Positions 4,129-50,418 of a stretch of 64,000 bases of DNA are shown piece by piece (the stretch's first letter is position 1; each line of letters opens with the position of its first letter). The DNA is taken from NCBI GenBank assembly GCA_025352125.1, contig JANXTZ010000044.1, positions 148,345 through 212,344 of the forward strand, written 5' to 3'. This DNA is from Deinococcales bacterium. Lineage in GTDB: Bacteria; Deinococcota; Deinococci; Deinococcales; JAAFIG01. Under the pieces are notes generated by a model. It saw nothing but the letters and a program-made list of their open reading frames with translations. It did no database searches and was not told the origin of the DNA. A program made the translations under genes and the position numbers.

Positions 4129-4408
4129 CAGCGGCTTGGCTTGAGCAAACCCAAACGGTTCGAGGTGTAAATTCCCCAGTACCTTTAAGCGCGGTAAAGT
4201 ATTGTTTTCTCGAGAAGGCGTTTTAATGCACTCAGTTTACCTCGAGATGAACTGAATGTTGTCAACTGCGTGAAGAATTAAGAAATTCGAGCTTTGAAAT
4301 TGCTGGGGATTCTGGCATTCCAAAACAAATTGGATTTTTGGTCACTCGAGCCTCGCTTGTCGCCACACAAAACAGAACCAAAGCTGGGGATGAGAGGGAG
4401 CAGGTGGT

Positions 4409-4443
4409 GATTATTTCACTCGAGCATCTCGAGTGAAATAATC
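4409..4443. promoter_or_regulatory. Perfect 16-bp inverted repeat with 3-nt loop (GATTATTTCACTCGAG cat CTCGAGTGAAATAATC), 15 nt upstream of the HAD start codon
   Basis: Read directly. The arms are exact reverse complements and each contains a CTCGAG. It lies in the divergent STAND/HAD intergenic region. Operator or 5-prime UTR hairpin; function unknown. Confidence 0.4.
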
Positions 4444-4457
4444 GGTACACTGAACAC

Positions 4458-5231
4458 GTGATTAAAGCCGTTTTATTCGACCTCGATGAAACCCTGATTC
4501 TTGACGAAGCCGTGTCGCTTCACGCGTTTCAAATGGTGGCGCTCAGTGTGACCCGAGATGCAAGCAAAGCCGCACAACTTGCGCACGCGGCGGAACAACA
4601 TGCAAAACGATTGTGGCAAACCCTGCCAGTTCCCGCACTCGAGTACGCCGCGCAAATTGGTCACAGTGCGCTCGAGGGCTTGTGGGCGGTGTACGACCCG
4701 AAGCTCGAGTTTGAGGTTTTACTCGAGGCGCACATTGTTGATTACCGTTTTGAAACCTGGAATGCGGCGCTTGTCGATTGCGGTTTGAAGGCGGATGCTC
4801 GAGGGTTAGAAAAATTGTGGCGAGGTTTGCGTGCCAGGTATCCGCTTTATCCAGGCGCGGACGAGTTGCTGGTATATTTAAAACCAAATTACAAACTTGG
4901 CATCGTCACGAACGGCGTGGCTTGTTTGCAACGCCAGAAATGGCATGGTTGCGGACTCGAGCCGTGGTTTGATGCGGTGGCGATTTCTGGAGAGCTTGGT
5001 ATTGGTAAACCCAATCCAGCGATTTTTGAATGGATTGCAGGTGAGTTAAAAGTGCCGCTCGAGACTTGCGTCGTGGTTGGTGACAATGCTGACCGCGATG
5101 TTCAGGGCGGCATCAACGCAGGAATCAAAACCGTCTGGATTGATCGCGGCTTCAAACCGCGCACGGCAATTGCCACGCTCGAGGTCAAACAATTGCTCGA
5201 GATGCTGCCCTGGCTCGAGGCGCAAACCTGA
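4458..5231 (+). CDS. HAD-superfamily hydrolase (subfamily IA-like)
   Basis: GTG start. Motif I is VLFDLDETL. Also IVTNG, GKPNP and the motif IV region VVGDNADRDVQG. Confidence 0.85.
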   Translation: MIKAVLFDLDETLILDEAVSLHAFQMVALSVTRDASKAAQLAHAAEQHAKRLWQTLPVPALEYAAQIGHSALEGLWAVYDPKLEFEVLLEAHIVDYRFETWNAALVDCGLKADARGLEKLWRGLRARYPLYPGADELLVYLKPNYKLGIVTNGVACLQRQKWHGCGLEPWFDAVAISGELGIGKPNPAIFEWIAGELKVPLETCVVVGDNADRDVQGGINAGIKTVWIDRGFKPRTAIATLEVKQLLEMLPWLEAQT

Positions 5232-5311
5232 CTTTTGTCATGTGCTCCCTCTGACAGTCTGCACTGTTTTAAATATGCGTCAACCCCGAGAATGACCACA
5301 GGAGGAACACA

Positions 5312-6205
5312 ATGTCTTTGGCGGTGGAACTCGAGAATGCAAGTAAATCTTTTGGCAGTGTTCAGGCACTTCGTAACGTGTCGCTCGAAGTTGAGGCGGG
5401 TGAGGTGGTCGCGTTTCTGGGACCGAACGGCGCAGGCAAAACCACCGCCATCAGCATCATGCTTGGTCTGCGTTCACCGACTTCGGGTCATGCCAGAATT
5501 TTTGGGCAGAACCCCAGAGAACCCAAAAACCGTGCGCGTATTGGCGTGATGCTGCAAGAATCTGGCGTGCCAGGATTGCTGAAGGTGCGCGAGTTGATTC
5601 GGTTGTTCACCCAGTTTTACAATGCGCCCTTGCTGGTTTCCAAAGTGCTCGAGATGGCGAACTTGACCGAGAAAAAAGACGCGATAGCCTCCACGCTTTC
5701 GGGTGGTCAAAAGCAACGACTTTATTTTGCATTGGCAATTTGTGGCAACCCAGATGTTTTGTTTCTGGACGAACCCAGCGTGGCGCTCGATGTCGAATCG
5801 CGTCGCGCGTTCTGGCAAGAAATTTCTGGCTTTGCGAAAACTGGTAAAACTGTGATTCTGACCACGCATTATCTCGAGGAAGCCGACGCGCTGGCGAACC
5901 GAATCATTGTCATCAACAAAGGCGAGATCGTGGCGCAGGGCAGTCCCGCGCAAATCAAATCGCGGGTTGGTGGCAAGAACGTTTCGTTCAAACTCGAGGT
6001 TGGAAATGCGGATGCGCTCGAGAATTTACCGAATGTACAGCGTTTCAGTAAGACTGGTGAAAGCATCAATCTGTACACTTTAGAGCCTGAAAAAGTCTTG
6101 CAAGAAGTTTTTGCATCTGGTTTGCAAATTTCAAACCTCAGCGTTGCAGGTGCGGGACTCGAGGAAGCCTTCATGGAAATCACCGAACAGGGAGCAAAAC
6201 AATGA
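5312..6205 (+). CDS. ABC transporter ATP-binding protein (ABC-2/drug-exporter type)
   Basis: Walker A GPNGAGKTT, signature LSGGQKQR, Walker B LFLDEP. Confidence 0.9.
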   Translation: MSLAVELENASKSFGSVQALRNVSLEVEAGEVVAFLGPNGAGKTTAISIMLGLRSPTSGHARIFGQNPREPKNRARIGVMLQESGVPGLLKVRELIRLFTQFYNAPLLVSKVLEMANLTEKKDAIASTLSGGQKQRLYFALAICGNPDVLFLDEPSVALDVESRRAFWQEISGFAKTGKTVILTTHYLEEADALANRIIVINKGEIVAQGSPAQIKSRVGGKNVSFKLEVGNADALENLPNVQRFSKTGESINLYTLEPEKVLQEVFASGLQISNLSVAGAGLEEAFMEITEQGAKQ

Positions 6206-7005
6206 CTGGTCTGAATCCTGAAAATGCGAATGCTCGAGCCTACAATCCGTTCAAAGGTTTGGGCTTTCAGTTGTACTGCGAACTGATTCGTTTATTGCGC
6301 AACCCAGGTTTTTTGATTCCGACGGTTTTGTTTCCGATCATGTTTTTTACGCTGTTTGGTTTGCCCAACGCCAAAGAAAATATTGGCAATGGCGTGACGG
6401 TTGGCGCGTACCTGCTGGCATCGTATGGGACTTACGGGATGCTTTCGGCAGCCTTGTTTGGCTTTGGGGTTGGCATTGCCGCCGAGCGTGGTCTGGGTTG
6501 GAACCGTTTGACTCGGGCAACGCCGATGCACCCGATCATGTACTTCAGCGCCAAAATTTTGACCGCCCTGTTGTCTGGGCTGGTGACACTGACCGCATTG
6601 TTCGCCTTCGGAATTCTGGTTGGACACATTTCGCTCCCGCTCGAGACTTGGCTGTTGCTGACCGCCCGAATCATGCTCGGCATGATGCCGTTTGTGGCGC
6701 TTGGCTTGTTCATCGGTTATCTTGGCAATCCGCAAAGTGCCACGCCGATCACTCAACTTATTTTCTTGCCGATGTCGTTTGCTTCAGGCATTTTCTTGCC
6801 AATCAAAAATTTGCCGCAGTTTGTCCAAGACCTCGCGCCGTACCTGCCCGCGTATCACAGCGGTCAACTGGCATGGCATACTCTGGGTGCTGGCGACAGC
6901 GCTAGCCTCGACTCGCACATCATCTGGAATCTTGGCTTCACGGTGCTGTTCCTGGCATTGGCTGTCTGGGCATATAAACGCGACGAAGCCAAGCAATACG
7001 GTTAA
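6202..7005 (+). CDS. ABC-2 type transporter permease
   Basis: ATGA start/stop overlap with the ATPase gene. About six predicted TM helices. Confidence 0.8.
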   Translation: MTGLNPENANARAYNPFKGLGFQLYCELIRLLRNPGFLIPTVLFPIMFFTLFGLPNAKENIGNGVTVGAYLLASYGTYGMLSAALFGFGVGIAAERGLGWNRLTRATPMHPIMYFSAKILTALLSGLVTLTALFAFGILVGHISLPLETWLLLTARIMLGMMPFVALGLFIGYLGNPQSATPITQLIFLPMSFASGIFLPIKNLPQFVQDLAPYLPAYHSGQLAWHTLGAGDSASLDSHIIWNLGFTVLFLALAVWAYKRDEAKQYG

Positions 7006-7038
7006 AGTGTTCCTCGAGCTTTTCAGATTTGAGGTTGT

Positions 7039-8175
7039 ATGACATACCGACGCAATTGGACCCGCTGGTACCCGCTGATCTGGTTGGTCTTCCTCGGGTT
7101 GCCAATATCGGCGCTCTTACAAACACAACGCAGCCCGCTCGAGTACGTCTACGGATTTTCATTGATCGCTGCGTTTGTAGGGTTTTTTCTGTGGTCATTT
7201 TTCTGGAATCACAACGACGAGCATAAACTCGAGGCAGCTTACCGAATTCCCAGTTTGATCGGTATGGTTTTCAGTTACGTCGTGTTCGGTTTGATGTGGA
7301 AGTTGCTCAATGGTGATGGTTCGGCATTCGTTGTCTACGCGGGTTCGTTTGCAGGTTTTCAAAAAAGCAACCGCCCCTTGATTGTCAGTGTTGTTATTTC
7401 GTTTGCTCTGGCGGTTGCTTTTGCGTTTTTCGATGCCAATTGGTTTGTCTGGACGATTCCAATTTCGACCGTGATTGCTGCGCTGGGCAATCACAGTGCC
7501 TATCTGCAAATACAAACGTTTCGCAGATTGCAAAACTCGCAGGCGCAAGTGGCAAGCATTGCCAAGGTTGCCGAACGCGAACGGATTGCCCGAGATTTGC
7601 ACGACCTTCTAGGGCATACGCTTTCGGTGATCGTCTTAAAGTCAGAACTTGCCAGCAAACTTGCCGAAAAAAATCCTGCCAAAGCCATCGCCGAAATCCG
7701 CGATGTCGAACGCATCAGCCGCGAAGCCCTGTCAGAGGTGCGCAGCGCCGTGCGCGGCTACCGCTCGAGTGGACTCGAAGCCGAACTGGCGAGCATTTCC
7801 CTGGCGCTTGAGGCAGCACAAATCAAGCTCGTGCCATTCGTGATGCCTTTAGAGCTTGAATGGGCAACCGAGCAGACCTTGGCGTTTATTTTGCGCGAGG
7901 CGATCACGAATGTGGTGCGGCACAGCAACGCCAGAACCTGTTTTGTTTCCCTCGAGCAATGCGGTCAATTTGTGCTGCTTGAGGTTTACGATGACGCGCA
8001 ACTCGAGCTTAAACCAGGCAACGGCATTGCTGGAATGCGAGAACGGGTGGCAGCCCTGGCAGGAAAATTCTCGCTTGTCACTGTGATTGGCAAGCGGGGA
8101 ATCAGCGTTAAACTTGCCCTTCACAGTTCCACCGATTCCAGTCTCAATCCTGCGCAACTCGAGGTACTTCCATGA
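7039..8175 (+). CDS. Sensor histidine kinase, HisKA_3 (DesK/NarX/LiaS-like)
   Basis: N-terminal TM helices. H-box ERERIARDLHDLLGHTLS. C-terminal HATPase region (NVVRHSNA...GNGIAGMRERV). Confidence 0.85.
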   Translation: MTYRRNWTRWYPLIWLVFLGLPISALLQTQRSPLEYVYGFSLIAAFVGFFLWSFFWNHNDEHKLEAAYRIPSLIGMVFSYVVFGLMWKLLNGDGSAFVVYAGSFAGFQKSNRPLIVSVVISFALAVAFAFFDANWFVWTIPISTVIAALGNHSAYLQIQTFRRLQNSQAQVASIAKVAERERIARDLHDLLGHTLSVIVLKSELASKLAEKNPAKAIAEIRDVERISREALSEVRSAVRGYRSSGLEAELASISLALEAAQIKLVPFVMPLELEWATEQTLAFILREAITNVVRHSNARTCFVSLEQCGQFVLLEVYDDAQLELKPGNGIAGMRERVAALAGKFSLVTVIGKRGISVKLALHSSTDSSLNPAQLEVLP

Positions 8176-8950: not shown

Positions 8951-9142
8951 GCGCCTATAGCTCAATGGTTAGAGCACCAATCTTCTTGACCATAAAACGT
9001 ACCTGTCTTGATCTTGATCCCAAACATGCACCTGATGGGCGGGATCGCTGACGGGCAAGGTCGCTTGTTGACCATAAAACGCACCTGACGGGCATGGTCG
9101 CTTCTAAATTGGCGCATACGGGTTCGAGTCCCGTTAGGCACA
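8951..9142 (+). tRNA. tRNA-Arg(TCT) gene interrupted by a 119-nt insert in the anticodon loop (possible pseudogene or intron-bearing gene)
   Basis: Hand fold after removing 8984-9102. Acceptor GCGCCTA/TAGGCAC has one C2-A71 mismatch. D arm GCTC-AATGGTTA-GAGC. Anticodon stem CCAAT/ATTGG with loop CT|TCTAA. Variable loop CGCAT. T arm ACGGG-TTCGAGT-CCCGT. Discriminator A. No encoded CCA. Confidence 0.7.
8984..9102 (+). repeat. Three copies of a ~37-nt hairpin repeat, one nested inside another, forming the tRNA insert
   Basis: Copy a is 8984-9005 plus 9050-9065 and is split by copy b, 9012-9049 (stem GATCCC/GGGATC). Copy c is 9066-9102 (stem GACCAT/ATGGTC). The consensus is TCTTG-stem-AAAACGCACCTGACGGGC-stem-CGCT. 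Confidence 0.8.
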
Positions 9143-22578: not shown

Positions 22579-23079
22579 ATGGCAATAACACCCGAGCAAA
22601 TGATTTTAGATGCCGCAAACACAAACGTTCGCCTCGAGTTTGTGCGTGGCATTCCGCTTTGGGAAGCCAGCCCAGTCGCGGGGCATCAACTCGAGATTTT
22701 CCGAATTCAGAACAGTATTAAGAGAAGTGATGACTCTCAAGCTTGTGCCTGTACCCACCTTTCAGACACGCTTTTTAAGTTTGGCGAGGGTTCACTCAAA
22801 CGCCCCGACATTGCGATTCTGTGCCAAGAATTAAAACCCGAACAACTGTACAGCGCCCTCGAGATCATCCCCGAAGCTGTGGTCGAAGTGATTTCCGAAG
22901 GTTACGAATACAAAGACCTCGAGATTGCGCCCCAGTTTTACCTGGGTTTGGGTGTGAAAGACGTTTTGATTCTCGAGCCACGGCTTAAAGTTGTGTATCA
23001 CCACCGAAAAGACAGCAAAACCCGACTCGAGTCACCTGTAAAATTGAGGCTCGAGTGTGGTTATGAAATTGAGGTTTAA
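22579..23079 (+). CDS. Uma2 family endonuclease (DUF820)
   Basis: EFVRGIPLWEASP..GHQ, PDIAIL, EVISEG...D..K...Y...GVKDVLILEP form the PD-(D/E)xK-like Uma2 pattern. Confidence 0.8.
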   Translation: MAITPEQMILDAANTNVRLEFVRGIPLWEASPVAGHQLEIFRIQNSIKRSDDSQACACTHLSDTLFKFGEGSLKRPDIAILCQELKPEQLYSALEIIPEAVVEVISEGYEYKDLEIAPQFYLGLGVKDVLILEPRLKVVYHHRKDSKTRLESPVKLRLECGYEIEV

Positions 23080-23510
23080 AATTTAATCAAGTGGCGCAAT
23101 CGTAAAAAATTTAAGAATTCGGCTGGAGTCAAAATAACAGCTTCTCCAAGCGTTTCCAATTCCAAAACACCAATGTTATCGCTGCTGACCAAAGCATTGG
23201 CTAGACCTTGTTCAACAATGGCGATTAAGAAATTGTCCTTTGGGTCTTTTGAGTCTCTCGAGTTTTGGTTGCCCCGCACGTACAAACCGTCAGAATGAAG
23301 TTGATTGACCAGCGCACCAATCCGATTGCGTTTCAAACGCTTTTTCAAACGTGGGTACGCGCAAACCAATTTGATTTCCTCGAGTAATTCAAGGTTGTAC
23401 AACACCACAAAAGCCCGATGTTCCCAAGCAAGAACAATTTGTCCACACAAACCATTGGGGTGAAGCATTGCACTGATAAACACGTTCGTATCCAGAACAA
23501 CTTTTAACAC
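23076..23510 (-). CDS. PIN-domain toxin (type II TA system)
   Basis: MLKVVLDTNVFISAML... N-terminus and later acidic residues are typical of the PIN family. It overlaps the upstream antitoxin gene by 1 nt. Confidence 0.8.
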   Translation of the reverse strand: MLKVVLDTNVFISAMLHPNGLCGQIVLAWEHRAFVVLYNLELLEEIKLVCAYPRLKKRLKRNRIGALVNQLHSDGLYVRGNQNSRDSKDPKDNFLIAIVEQGLANALVSSDNIGVLELETLGEAVILTPAEFLNFLRLRHLIKF

Positions 23511-23772: not shown

Positions 23773-23826
23773 CTCGAGTCACCCGTAAAATTGAAACTCG
23801 AGTGCGGTTGTGAAATTGAGGTTTGA
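23773..23826 (+). repeat. Direct repeat copy B of the Uma2 3-prime end
   Basis: 48 of 54 nt are identical to 23026-23079 by hand alignment. It still encodes ..LESPVKLKLECGCEIEV*. Confidence 0.85.
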
Positions 23827-23876
23827 ATGCGAGATTTGAGCTTGTTGAAACCTTTCTGTTGTACTAAAATCATACC

Positions 23877-24074
23877 ATGAGTTCAATGCCTGAAATTAAA
23901 AAACTCAGTGTTTCAGATCGCCTTGATTTGCTCGAGAGTATTTGGGAGAGTTTGAGCCTTGAAGATGCTGTTCCAGAATTAACGCAAGCACAAAAACTCG
24001 AGATTGATCGGCGACTTACTGCCCATGACGCGAATCCAAGCCGAGGTCGTTCTTGGACTGAAGCCCGAGTGTGA
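23877..24074 (+). CDS. Putative addiction-module component (small antitoxin-like protein)
   Basis: LSVSDRLDLLESIWESL...ELTQAQKLEIDRRL is the pattern of the small 'putative addiction module component' family. The stop codon lies inside repeat copy C. Confidence 0.65.
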   Translation: MSSMPEIKKLSVSDRLDLLESIWESLSLEDAVPELTQAQKLEIDRRLTAHDANPSRGRSWTEARV

Positions 24075-24093
24075 TTGTGAGATCGAGGTTTGA
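24064..24093 (+). repeat. Direct repeat copy C (diverged, partial) of the Uma2 3-prime end
   Basis: 24 of 30 nt are identical to 23050-23079. It would encode ..ECDCEIEV*. Confidence 0.6.
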
Positions 24094-24097
24094 ATAA

Positions 24098-42166: not shown

Positions 42167-42874
42167 ATGGCAACAGTTAACCGAGGCGCGATTTTAAAAA
42201 GCGTCGAACAATCTCACTTGCGCTCTGACATCCCAGATTTTCGTCCGGGCGATACCGTTCGCGTCGATTACAAAGTCACCGAAGGTACCCGCACCCGCGT
42301 TCAAGCTTTCGAGGGCGTCGTCATCGCCATCAACCACGGTGGCACCGCCAAAAGCTTCACCGTGCGCAAAATTGCTTTCAACGAAGGCGTCGAACGTATT
42401 TTCCCGTACAACACCCCTCTCATTGACAAGGTTACGGTGCTCGAGCGCGGTAAGGTTCGCCGCGCCAAGTTGTACTACCTGCGTGAACTGCGTGGCAAAG
42501 CCGCCAAGATCAAAACAGATCGCGGTCGCATGATGAAAGTCCAAGCCGCCACCGCTGCCAGCAAAGCCAGCGCCGTGGCTGCCGCCGCCGTTGCCGTGAC
42601 AACCTCGAGCAACGCCGTTCTGACTGAAGACCTCAAACGCATCGAAGGCATCGGACCAAAAATCAATGACGCCCTGATCGCCGCCGGAATCACCACCTAC
42701 GCTCAACTTGCCGCCAGCAACGAGGACAGCCTGAAAGCGGCACTCGAGATTGACGACATGAACGCCCACCCAAGCATGGGATCGTGGGCTGCACAAGCCG
42801 AACTTCTTGCCAAAGGTGACGAGGAAGGCTTCAAAGCACTGACCGACAGCTTGAACGCTGGTCGCGCAGAGTAA
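42167..42874 (+). CDS. rplS: 50S ribosomal protein L19 with ~110-aa C-terminal extension (Ala-rich linker + helix-hairpin-helix-like domain)
   Basis: ATG at 42167 with GAAAGGA upstream. L19 core is [29 protein letters not shown]...FTVRK. The extension contains [27 protein letters not shown]. Confidence 0.85.
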
Positions 42875-42894
42875 ATTAAGCTCGAGAAAACTTG

Positions 42895-42924
42895 CAGGGC
42901 GAGCGAAGGCTTGCCCTGTTTTTT
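42895..42924 (+). terminator. Rho-independent terminator of rplS
   Basis: CAGGGC-gagcgaaggctt-GCCCTG followed by TTTTTT. Confidence 0.75.
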
Positions 42925-43001
42925 GTATGAAAGCTCGAGGTTCAACTCGTTGAAATAGATGTACAAGGAACAGCAATTGCTCTGGCTACCCTCATCCCCA
43001 G

Positions 43002-43063
43002 CCCTTCTCCCGTCTTGACCATAAAACGCACCTGCGGGCATGGTCGCAACATCGGGAGAAGGG
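43002..43063. repeat. Composite hairpin: 11-bp perfect stem (CCCTTCTCCCG/CGGGAGAAGGG) whose loop carries one copy of the 37-nt repeat (43013-43049)
   Basis: Read directly. The inner sequence TCTTGACCATAAAACGCACCTGCGGGCATGGTCGC matches the tRNA-insert copies. Confidence 0.8.
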
Positions 43064-43130
43064 AGCTTTGATCTTTTATAAGTGTGACTCGAAGTATTTC
43101 CTTCTTCCAAATATTACGCCCTCACAAAAA

Positions 43131-43757
43131 TCACAAGGCTTGCAACACCCGTTGCTCAAGCGAATTCAAAACTTTCACCACCCGTGGGAACACGCCGAGC
43201 ACGTCTTGCCAGAGCGTTTTTGGGACAACCTCGAGCGCTGGTGTTCCCCAATCTGGCGTGGCATCCCACCATTCGCCGCGCAAAACCCAGGTGTTGTTGT
43301 GCTGATATGCCAGTCCAAATGCTGCGCCCAAACCGCGCAATTCCTCAAAACCAGCCTCGAGATTCGTGATTTCTCGCTCGAGCCGCGTGATTTTGGGTTT
43401 TGGACGAAGACGCAAGGTCAGCGTCTCGAGTTTGATGGGTTGCGTCAAACTTGGGTCTGACCCAACCACCAAACGCACCAAGTCATAGCCCGAAACGTTT
43501 TTGACCACACGCCCTCCCGCTTGGACAGCGCCAGAACTCGAGGAGGTATAGGTCAAACCCAGCACGTCCTTGCGAACGGCGGGTGCAGCCAACAAACCCA
43601 CGCCGCCCGAGAGCACCCAATTTTGAAGCGTCAAATCAATCAATGGGGCACGGTAATGCAAATTCTCGGGCAGTGCCGCCTCGAGTTGGGCAAGGCTGGT
43701 GCTGGCGGGAACGGTCACATACTGGTCGGAAGCATGAATCTCGAGCGACATGAACAA
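43131..43757 (-). CDS. FAD-binding (PCMH-type, GlcE-like) domain protein, short
   Basis: GGRVVKNVSGYDLVRLVVGS resembles the GlcE/FAD_binding_4 block. At 208 aa it is shorter than typical GlcE. Confidence 0.5.
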   Translation of the reverse strand: MFMSLEIHASDQYVTVPASTSLAQLEAALPENLHYRAPLIDLTLQNWVLSGGVGLLAAPAVRKDVLGLTYTSSSSGAVQAGGRVVKNVSGYDLVRLVVGSDPSLTQPIKLETLTLRLRPKPKITRLEREITNLEAGFEELRGLGAAFGLAYQHNNTWVLRGEWWDATPDWGTPALEVVPKTLWQDVLGVFPRVVKVLNSLEQRVLQAL

Positions 43758-50305: not shown

Positions 50306-50418
50306 AGGGTGCGCTTCTTCTTGGTCTCAAGACGCACCTCACGGACGAGACCACTTCGGGCATGGTCGCTCCACGCACCAATCGCACATGTTTGACGGGA
50401 CGGTGCGCACGGCGCACC
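50306..50418. repeat. Pile-up of 37-nt hairpin-repeat copies and fragments between the ADH and R2lox genes
   Basis: The full variant copy is ~50318-50354 (stem GGTCTC/GAGACC, loop AAGACGCACCTCACGGAC). A 3-prime fragment TCGGGCATGGTCGCT lies at 50355-50369. Further ACGCACC / GACGGGAC fragments follow, plus the hairpin GGTGCGC-acg-GCGCACC at 50402-50418. Confidence 0.65.

Follow-up and report, generated by a model that had tools for sequence, protein, structure and literature searches.

The question raised by this locus is whether a composite hairpin of 62 nucleotides (nt), at 43002–43063 of a 64,000-nt stretch of DNA from an uncultured Deinococcales bacterium (contig JANXTZ010000044.1; the whole stretch is called the window here), is a mobile unit that landed in a short motif, or a part of something larger. 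The original prediction favoured the first answer and regarded 4379–4394 as the empty target. Comparison with related loci, which are cited by our L numbers, suggested the second. The hairpin appears to be an integral part of a ~120-nt dispersed repeat, X; a very small non-coding element, E, appears to have integrated in its loop; and 4379–4394 would be a copy of X from which the hairpin has been deleted. We put the probability of this reading as a whole at about 75%. Coordinates are collected in Table 1.

The composite hairpin and repeat X

The structure described for this locus was present. CCCTTCTCCCG (43002–43012) pairs perfectly with CGGGAGAAGGG (43053–43063) over 11 bp, enclosing a 40-nt loop, tcTTGACCATAAAACGCACCTGCGGGCATGGTCGCaacat, and the flanks are CTCATCCCCAG and AGCTTTG, as claimed. 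Folded as single-stranded DNA, the 80-nt stretch that holds hairpin and flanks formed a long stem, the loop of which contains a smaller hairpin (−17.3 kcal/mol, z = −3.5). The eleventh base pair, G43012:C43053, is built with the G of the inserted E (GTC), so although the stem is perfect over 11 bp, the arms of the X hairpin itself are only 10 nt long. When joined with one AG, the flanks gave the 16-mer CTCATCCCCAGCTTTG, which had exactly one further match in the window, at 4379–4394 on the minus strand. In 100 shuffles, CTCATCCCCAGCTTTG had a mean of 0.01 matches with up to two mismatches allowed. The similarity of the two sites spanned ~40 nt with three indels in a local alignment, and more than 100 nt when set against the orthologues described below. 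The shuffles and the extended alignment together indicated that this similarity reflects homology and not chance.

Filled and uninterrupted examples were found for E in relatives, and ~37 copies of X were also recovered. We gathered 134 copies of E, 84 of them distinct, by a pattern scan of related contigs. The scan covered one-genome-per-species bacterial and archaeal contigs and matched at least 108 stretches. All 108 E-bearing stretches among the matches listed were from metagenome-assembled genomes (MAGs) named "Deinococcales bacterium", one of them labelled Trueperaceae, and many of the isolate names among these matches refer to glacier or glacier-stream samples. The proteins of the window had matches only on metagenome-assembly contigs, and a scan of IMG/VR gave 0 copies of E. 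The census of X was made in ~0.7 Mb of fetched loci from related Deinococcales MAGs.

In this sample of an uncultured Deinococcales lineage, X appeared as a repeat dispersed among intergenic regions, with the hairpin as one of its integral parts. The consensus from all CTCATCCCC-like sites in the fetched loci was cAGCAATTGC-N7-CyACC-CTCATCCCC-rA-CCCTTCTCCCG-loop-CGGGAGAAGGG-AGyTTwrgTTcTTTaCACgTGTGGCTCGAG, and the ~37 copies had the common pattern cAGCAATTGC..CTCATCCCCrA-hairpin-AGyTT..ACACGTGTGGCTCGAG. The hairpin (CCCTTCTCCC-loop-GGGAGAAGGG) is G+C-rich, and it was found at a constant position in ~35 of the 37 copies. The two exceptions were the window site at 4379–4394, where all of it is gone, and L046, where the 5' arm is gone between two CCC repeats. 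The hairpin motif was found 59 times, in each case in X, in an inverted partner hairpin that often follows X (X2), or in the reverse-strand readings of these; none stood alone. In L088 the X-X2 composite has inverted ends (CCCTCATCC / GGATGAGGG; CCACCCTCATCC...GGATGAGGGTGG), and solo X copies such as the one in the window lack the right end. An AG adjoins the hairpin on each side (43000–43001 and 43064–43065), and most X copies read rA...AG here. The proposed insertion of a 62-nt hairpin into a 16–20-nt motif, with duplication of AG, was not supported by this comparison, in which motif, hairpin and AGCTTTG form one unbroken stretch of the ~120-nt X. Nesting as such was confirmed, but with two levels, X containing E, instead of the three proposed.

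The ~37-nt repeat in the loop had been described as a discrete insertion from a dispersed, nesting family, and this was borne out by uninterrupted paralogues. In the X copies of L060, L088 and L055 the hairpin reads CCCTTCTCCC-AACATC-GGGAGAAGGG, which gives the state of the window hairpin before E. The positions of E in X varied, but its orientation was constant. It was in the apical loop in the window, L031 and L014; at the 5' foot of the stem in L029, L081, L086, L107, L108, L073 and others; and between CCCTC and ATCCCC in L022, L031, L039, L045 and L061. At three loci (window 43012, L031 7906 and, on the minus strand, L014 2637) a 33-nt variant of E interrupts the X loop at exactly the same point (ccc/NTC-E/aacatc). 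This could be a hot spot that is hit repeatedly, or a composite of X and E that spreads.

The site at 4379–4394

The gene adjoining 4379–4394 encodes a HAD hydrolase (4458–5231). Contigs encoding HAD homologues of 84–87% identity were fetched as orthologous loci, and three of them were syntenic with the window. In L115 and L117 the gene order was NB-ARC/TPR regulator, intergenic region, HAD, ABC, HisKA_3 and response regulator. The site could not be upheld as an empty target, because the orthologues in L115 and L117 carry X with its hairpin (Table 1). The window copy corresponded to this orthologous X, short of a palindrome of ~27 nt and of the X2 module. It had a CTCTCAT variant in common with L117, and the two also agreed over more than 60 nt further downstream that are specific to this copy. 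A further metagenome scan with the HAD protein as query returned only remote HAD hydrolases (24–44% identity) and no extra orthologous loci, and contigs with identical HAD and GreA proteins were from the same strain and added no polymorphism.

Judged from these alignments, 4379–4394 is most likely a deletion derivative of X and not the pre-insertion state. Deletion was favoured because the hairpin is a family-wide feature that never occurs outside X or X2, because L046 shows a partial deletion, and because the same window copy has lost X2. Bacterial palindromes and quasi-palindromes are deleted via replication slippage between short flanking direct repeats. At 4379–4394, slippage across the hairpin between the flanking AGs may have removed the palindrome together with one AG. 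The two hairpin-deficient sites resemble such deletions, in that the whole palindrome and one copy of the 2-nt direct repeat AG are missing at 4379–4394, and one arm is missing between CCC repeats in L046. They differ from the known cases in that the process is read here from its end products.

Presence and absence of the hairpin can also be explained in the opposite direction. In this alternative, the mobile unit is the composite hairpin of 62 nt, or else its shell of 26 nt, and this unit inserted in the 16–20-nt motif and duplicated AG, leaving 4379–4394 as the empty site. The exact match of the joined flanks is what such an event would leave. A second precise difference was observed between the orthologous loci L014 and L097, where L097 has the X2 hairpin and L014 lacks exactly this hairpin, with a repeat of 0–1 nt at the ends. 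The loop of the X hairpin is also inverted between these two loci (AACATC vs GATGTT), and a reversed E-like unit is found in L014 but not in L097. The four orthologous genomes at the HAD locus are about equally distant from one another, so the 4379 locus alone cannot fix the polarity, and the deletion reading rests on parsimony and on the family-wide pattern. This pattern is difficult to reconcile with a mobile hairpin. Such a unit would be expected outside X and X2, where none of the 59 occurrences was found, and not at the same position in ~35 of 37 copies of X. The orthologues of the "empty" site bear the hairpin, the two hairpin-absent cases differ at their ends (a 2-nt repeat vs 0–1 nt), and only one arm is gone in the slippage deletion of L046. 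We consider insertion of the hairpin improbable. For E, an orthologous pair differs in presence and absence, as L014 carries E where its orthologue L097 does not.

X may instead be a conserved functional RNA or regulatory module, such as a 3'-UTR stabiliser or terminator, that was multiplied by selection and tolerates E as a passenger. X lies in intergenic regions just 3' of genes, and its arms show compensatory changes between copies (CCTTCTCCC/GGGAGAAGG vs CCTTCTCTC/GAGAGAAGG). However, a simple terminator scan did not flag the X hairpin, which is followed by only TTT and no T-run, and the window copy at 42971 lies downstream of the rplS terminator (42894–42919). Rfam gave 0 matches on 42700–43300 with permissive E-values, and at gathering threshold its sole match in the whole window was a tRNA. 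X is also variably present at orthologous loci, being missing downstream of rplS in L122 and L120, which have a different sequence there, and from the HAD locus in L113. Deletion erodes its copies, which are also heavily invaded by E. A selected function of this kind is quite improbable as the explanation of X. Where the window has X, the rplS-downstream region of L122 contains a palindromic repeat, ctattaaag...ctttaatag (1822–1993), which recurs at the corresponding but non-syntenic place in L123 (1819–2115).

Table 1. Features of the window and state of the HAD locus in relatives
Feature	Position	Strand	Basis
X copy, cAGCAATTGC-N7-CTACC-CTCATCCCCAG-hairpin-AGCTTTG...GTGTGACTCGAAG	42971–43094	+	aligned with nine other X copies; ends approximate
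5' shoulder of X, CTCATCCCCAG, left half of the proposed host motif	42991–43001	+	invariant or near-invariant alignment columns, ~37 copies
5' arm of X hairpin, CCCTTCTCCC	43002–43011	+	pairing; DNA fold
E in the apical loop, GTC + TTGACCATAAAACGCACCTGCGGGCATGGTCGC, 36 nt	43012–43047	+	covariance model, 51.3 bits, E-value 1e-9
Original hairpin loop, AACATC	43048–43053	+	uninterrupted in X copies L060, L088, L055
3' arm of X hairpin, GGGAGAAGGG	43054–43063	+	pairing with CCCTTCTCCC
3' shoulder of X, AGCTTTG, right half of the proposed host motif	43064–43070	+	X alignment
Second X copy, without the whole hairpin and without X2	4316–4415	-	junction 16-mer at 4379–4394; ends approximate
E, three units (one nested, one tandem), behind tRNA position 32	8983–9101	+	tRNA gene 8951–9142
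Degenerate E (TTC + TTGGTCTC...GAGACCAC), then 3' half of a second E	50318–50369	+	covariance model, 27.2 bits
Window, 4379 locus: X without hairpin, without X2			
L115 (GCA_965189485.1), orthologous site: X with intact hairpin and X2			
L117 (JGI 3300081913), orthologous site: X with hairpin, nested E pair at hairpin foot, and X2			
L113 (ERZ22858803), orthologous site: whole block missing			

Element E inside and outside X

The core of E reads TTGAYC-NN-AAA..-GCACCT-(1-3 nt)-GGGC-NN-GRTCGC and has 33–35 nt; with a leading NTC the full unit has 36–39 nt (consensus NTC-TTGAYC...GRTCGC). NTC preceded E in 129 of the 134 copies, as TTC in 75, GTC in 30, CTC in 18 and ATC in 6. The variable N, which sometimes has TG before it, tracked the subfamily of E. 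Since N is specific to each subfamily, it appears to belong to E and to be inherited with it. Comparison of filled sites with uninterrupted paralogous or orthologous sites showed that the added sequence is NTC plus E, with no target duplication; NTC is missing from the uninterrupted sites and moves with E. The unit folds as a two-tier hairpin, with an outer stem of 6–7 bp, an inner GC(A)CC/GGGC stem and a hypervariable apical loop. In a 36-sequence alignment, three pairs of the outer stem showed compensatory changes, in 34 cells, and 96% of the stem cells were paired, compared with 27–45% when the partners were slid.

Many copies of E were inside other structures. Thirty-five copies were nested in the loops of other E copies, between GCACCT and GGGC. 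Among the solitary copies (n = 77), 29% were in loops closed by perfect stems of 6 bp or longer, vs 4% in a control with mismatched flanks. The hosts were GTAGGGGCG-type repetitive extragenic palindromic (REP) hairpins, tRNA anticodon stem-loops, X and X2, and the loop of E itself. Head-to-tail arrays with a period of 36–39 nt were present in L058, L024 and L093, and E occurred on both strands in only 2 of 97 loci. In the window, the covariance model placed intact copies at 9014–9048, 9068–9101 and 43015–43047 and a degenerate one at 50321–50354, all on the plus strand. Both E units of the degenerate site were in the loop of a REP-like hairpin, GTAGG..GGTGCGC/CGCACC. On our reading, E prefers hairpin loops, keeps a fixed orientation to the host hairpin, makes no target-site duplication and spreads at the DNA level.

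E was also found inside genes. In long open reading frames (ORFs), with copies pointing along and against the gene, it was 36 or 39 nt in length, stop-free and in frame, and at several loci its removal restored or preserved a long ORF. In MetH (L085), E together with a REP occupied the linker between the S-methyl_trans and Pterin_bind domains. The glutamate racemase MurI of L101 contained several tandem in-frame units, each read as LLDPKTHLRAGS, and a FAD-dependent oxidoreductase (L053) carried E in frame. In all three proteins the Pfam domains flanking E were intact. IS3-family transposase genes also contained E, close to their frameshift region (...FFAKE...), at L042 ~5476, L095 ~9 and L060 ~305 (minus strand).

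The tRNA gene of the window illustrates the damage that E can do. ARAGORN with default settings reported no tRNA in the window. With introns allowed it reported a tRNA-Arg(TCT) with a 119-nt intron, which we rejected, as the orthologues are uninterrupted and have the anticodon TAT. These orthologous tRNAs, in L126 (10375–10450) and L127 (10966–11041), have the anticodon loop CTTATAA (Ile-UAU type). The window gene has a C2.A71 mismatch in the acceptor stem and TCA in place of the encoded CCA. We read it as a decaying gene, whose "TCT anticodon" is an artefact of the junction. The parallel that had been drawn between the tRNA locus and the hairpin at 43 kb holds only as insertion damage. A group I or bulge-helix-bulge intron was also rejected for E, given the insertion after position 32, the decayed tRNA body, the uninterrupted orthologues, the unit size of 36–39 nt and 0 Rfam matches for the E copy in the hairpin at 43 kb. 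In L054, an array of 13 tRNA genes spans 2.3 kb (4974–7212). ARAGORN placed introns in three of them, and what it took for an intron in two cases is an E unit within the anticodon loop; the array holds a third E copy as well.

An action at the RNA level has to be weighed here, in which E is a mini-intron or retro-element that is spliced from transcripts and hence tolerated in anticodon loops and genes. Sense-oriented E follows position 32 in four tRNA genes, and the variable extra 5' nucleotide with an exact 3' end recalls the junctions left by reverse transcriptase. But the 5' nucleotide is subfamily-specific, which indicates inheritance and not untemplated addition, and clustering of the ORFs from E-bearing loci revealed no reverse-transcriptase gene recurring near E. 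The stop-free, in-frame copies in both orientations are expected of translated insertions and would be needless if E were spliced. The window tRNA has lost its CCA and its acceptor pairing, the orthologues are intact, and no Rfam family matched. Since E is read through in frame in both orientations, and since the interrupted tRNA is decaying, E would act on DNA and not be spliced. We regard the RNA-level explanation as very unlikely.

The lack of target duplication, the conserved hairpin, the fixed orientation and the loop preference lead to the hypothesis of a trans-acting, structure-specific enzyme that mobilises E as a single-stranded DNA hairpin. A possible candidate is a RAYT/IS200-type Y1 HUH transposase. 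We searched by tblastn with IS608 TnpA and E. coli RAYT as queries. The sole find was a RAYT-like gene in L019 (3290–3856, minus strand; Pfam Y1_Tnp, E-value 3.5e-8). One of the REPs flanking this gene has E in its loop, and the GTAGGGGCG REP family often hosts E. Cargo-bearing split copies of E, as an autonomous parent would leave, were also sought; only chance pairs appeared, and L106 was inspected. Clustering of the ORFs of at least 120 aa from E-bearing loci brought up no recurrent proteins beyond common multigene families and an IS3 transposase, and no enzyme linked to E. The recurring IS3 transposase is itself interrupted by E, that is, a target.

Several observations weigh against the reading as a whole. 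No transposase was linked to E in ~0.76 Mb. The only RAYT found, in L019, is flanked by a different repeat, the GTAGGGGCG-type REPs. A test of E orientation against GC skew gave 47 positive and 46 negative cases, with no strand bias. The sample of X is skewed to loci that contain E. The X-free orthologues (L113, L120 and L122) have unrelated sequence at the site, where no clean junction or target duplication is definable. Given the star-like phylogeny of the four orthologous genomes, a single deletion at 4379 cannot strictly be told apart from insertion in the lineages of L115 and L117. The X2 difference between L014 and L097 could be read as an insertion too, although it fits deletion as well. 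That the 16-mer match is a coincidence has a negligible probability; the overlap length was open to choice at the junction and only two copies exist in the window, but shuffles gave 0.01 matches even with two mismatches, the similarity runs well past 16 nt, and alignment of a family that recurs in dozens of loci refutes it.

Known systems, other features and significance

By analogy, E seems to work most like the small dispersed repeats (SDR) of heterocystous cyanobacteria. Those repeats, from the work of Elhai et al., are reportedly some 21–27 nt long, nested, and without an encoded transposase. [quoted passage not shown] In contrast to SDR, E belongs to another phylum, would not be expected to be homologous to them, is 36–39 nt long with a two-tier covarying hairpin, prefers apical loops and forms head-to-tail arrays of 36–39-nt period.

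The IS200/IS605 family, which is represented in Deinococcus by ISDra2, inserts without target-site duplication, with strand and orientation specificity and in dependence on DNA hairpins. E is similar in that it lacks target-site duplications, is orientation-specific and is hairpin-dependent. However, E has a single hairpin and no separate left-end and right-end hairpins; its uninterrupted sites have no conserved 4–5-nt target 5' of E, as NTC travels with E; and it shows neither a detectable lagging-strand bias nor an adjacent TnpA.

REPs and REPINs are short intergenic palindromes of 20–40 nt, which a Y1 HUH enzyme is believed to process in the form of single-stranded hairpins (PMC3116915, PMC3337134). 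E is likewise a short imperfect palindrome with compensatory changes, and its lineage encodes a RAYT-like gene alongside REPs of the classical GTAG type. But E has no GTAG at the foot of the palindrome, and its loop is large (18 nt), unlike that of REPs, in which a long stem carries a small loop. E occurs in nests and direct arrays and not as inverted doublets (REPINs), and it does not flank the RAYT gene but is inserted into the REPs that do. We rejected a classification of E as REP or REPIN for the missing GTAG, the missing inverted doublets and its absence as the repeat flanking the RAYT gene.

Rickettsia palindromic elements (RPE) have ~100–150 bp and occur in an obligate intracellular alpha-proteobacterium (PMC10969869). 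They too are selfish palindromes that lie in frame in protein genes, translated as extra peptide segments, and in RNA genes (PMC10969869). E differs in its length of 36–39 nt, its loop targeting and its self-nesting. X, for its part, resembles a MITE (PMC10969869; PMC3184786) with unproven ends. It is non-coding, dispersed, in the range of 100–200 nt, intergenic and variably present at orthologous loci, and in size and copy number it falls within the usual description (non-coding, 50–500 bp, many copies; ~37 found). It differs from MITEs in having no demonstrable target-site duplication, clean ends or parent insertion sequence.

Other features of the window were noted in passing. CTCGAG occurs 436 times (6.8 per kb), the next palindromic hexamer 48 times. 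In 687 kb of related Deinococcales MAG loci (L004–L111) there are 4280 copies, 6.2 per kb vs ~0.24 expected, an excess that resembles HIP1 of cyanobacteria. We found nothing in the literature on E or on over-representation of CTCGAG in Deinococcales. A 55-nt repeat (CTCGAGTCACCTGTAAAATTGAGGCTCGAGTGTGGTTATGAAATTGAGGTTTAAA) has three copies in a stretch of lower GC content (23026–23080, 23773–23827 and 24040–24094). Ribosomal protein L19 (42167–42874) carries a C-terminal extension of ~115 residues with a helix-hairpin-helix (HHH_5) domain. Two short-read Logan contigs of the same strain (L001 and L002, rplS-greA region) both terminate inside the X+E hairpin.

The result is mainly corrective. 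Matches across a junction give no polarity by themselves, since an apparent pair of filled and empty sites was, on our reading, a pair of intact and deleted copies of a larger repeat, and the pair formed by 43 kb and 4379 would then represent the ordinary genome decay of selfish repeats. There are practical consequences for annotation and assembly as well, as E units give spurious "tRNA-Arg with intron" annotations and nested repeats fragment short-read assemblies, of which L001 and L002 are examples.

The E family is the noteworthy part. An uncultured cold-freshwater clade of Deinococcales carries a lineage-specific element of 36–39 nt that homes to loops, nests in itself and builds arrays. 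It disrupts tRNA genes and adds segments of 12–13 residues to enzymes such as MetH and MurI. We propose only tentatively, and with the odds against it, that E represents an undescribed class of ultra-small DNA element that integrates into hairpin loops, among them its own and those of REPs and tRNA anticodon arms, in a fixed orientation and without duplicating the target. If this were true, it would imply an as yet unrecognised structure-specific integration activity, which could belong to an enzyme of its own or be a novel function of a Y1 transposase of the RAYT kind. Were the mobilising activity of E to be found, it would offer a compact model of structure-directed DNA integration, and its targeting might serve engineering.

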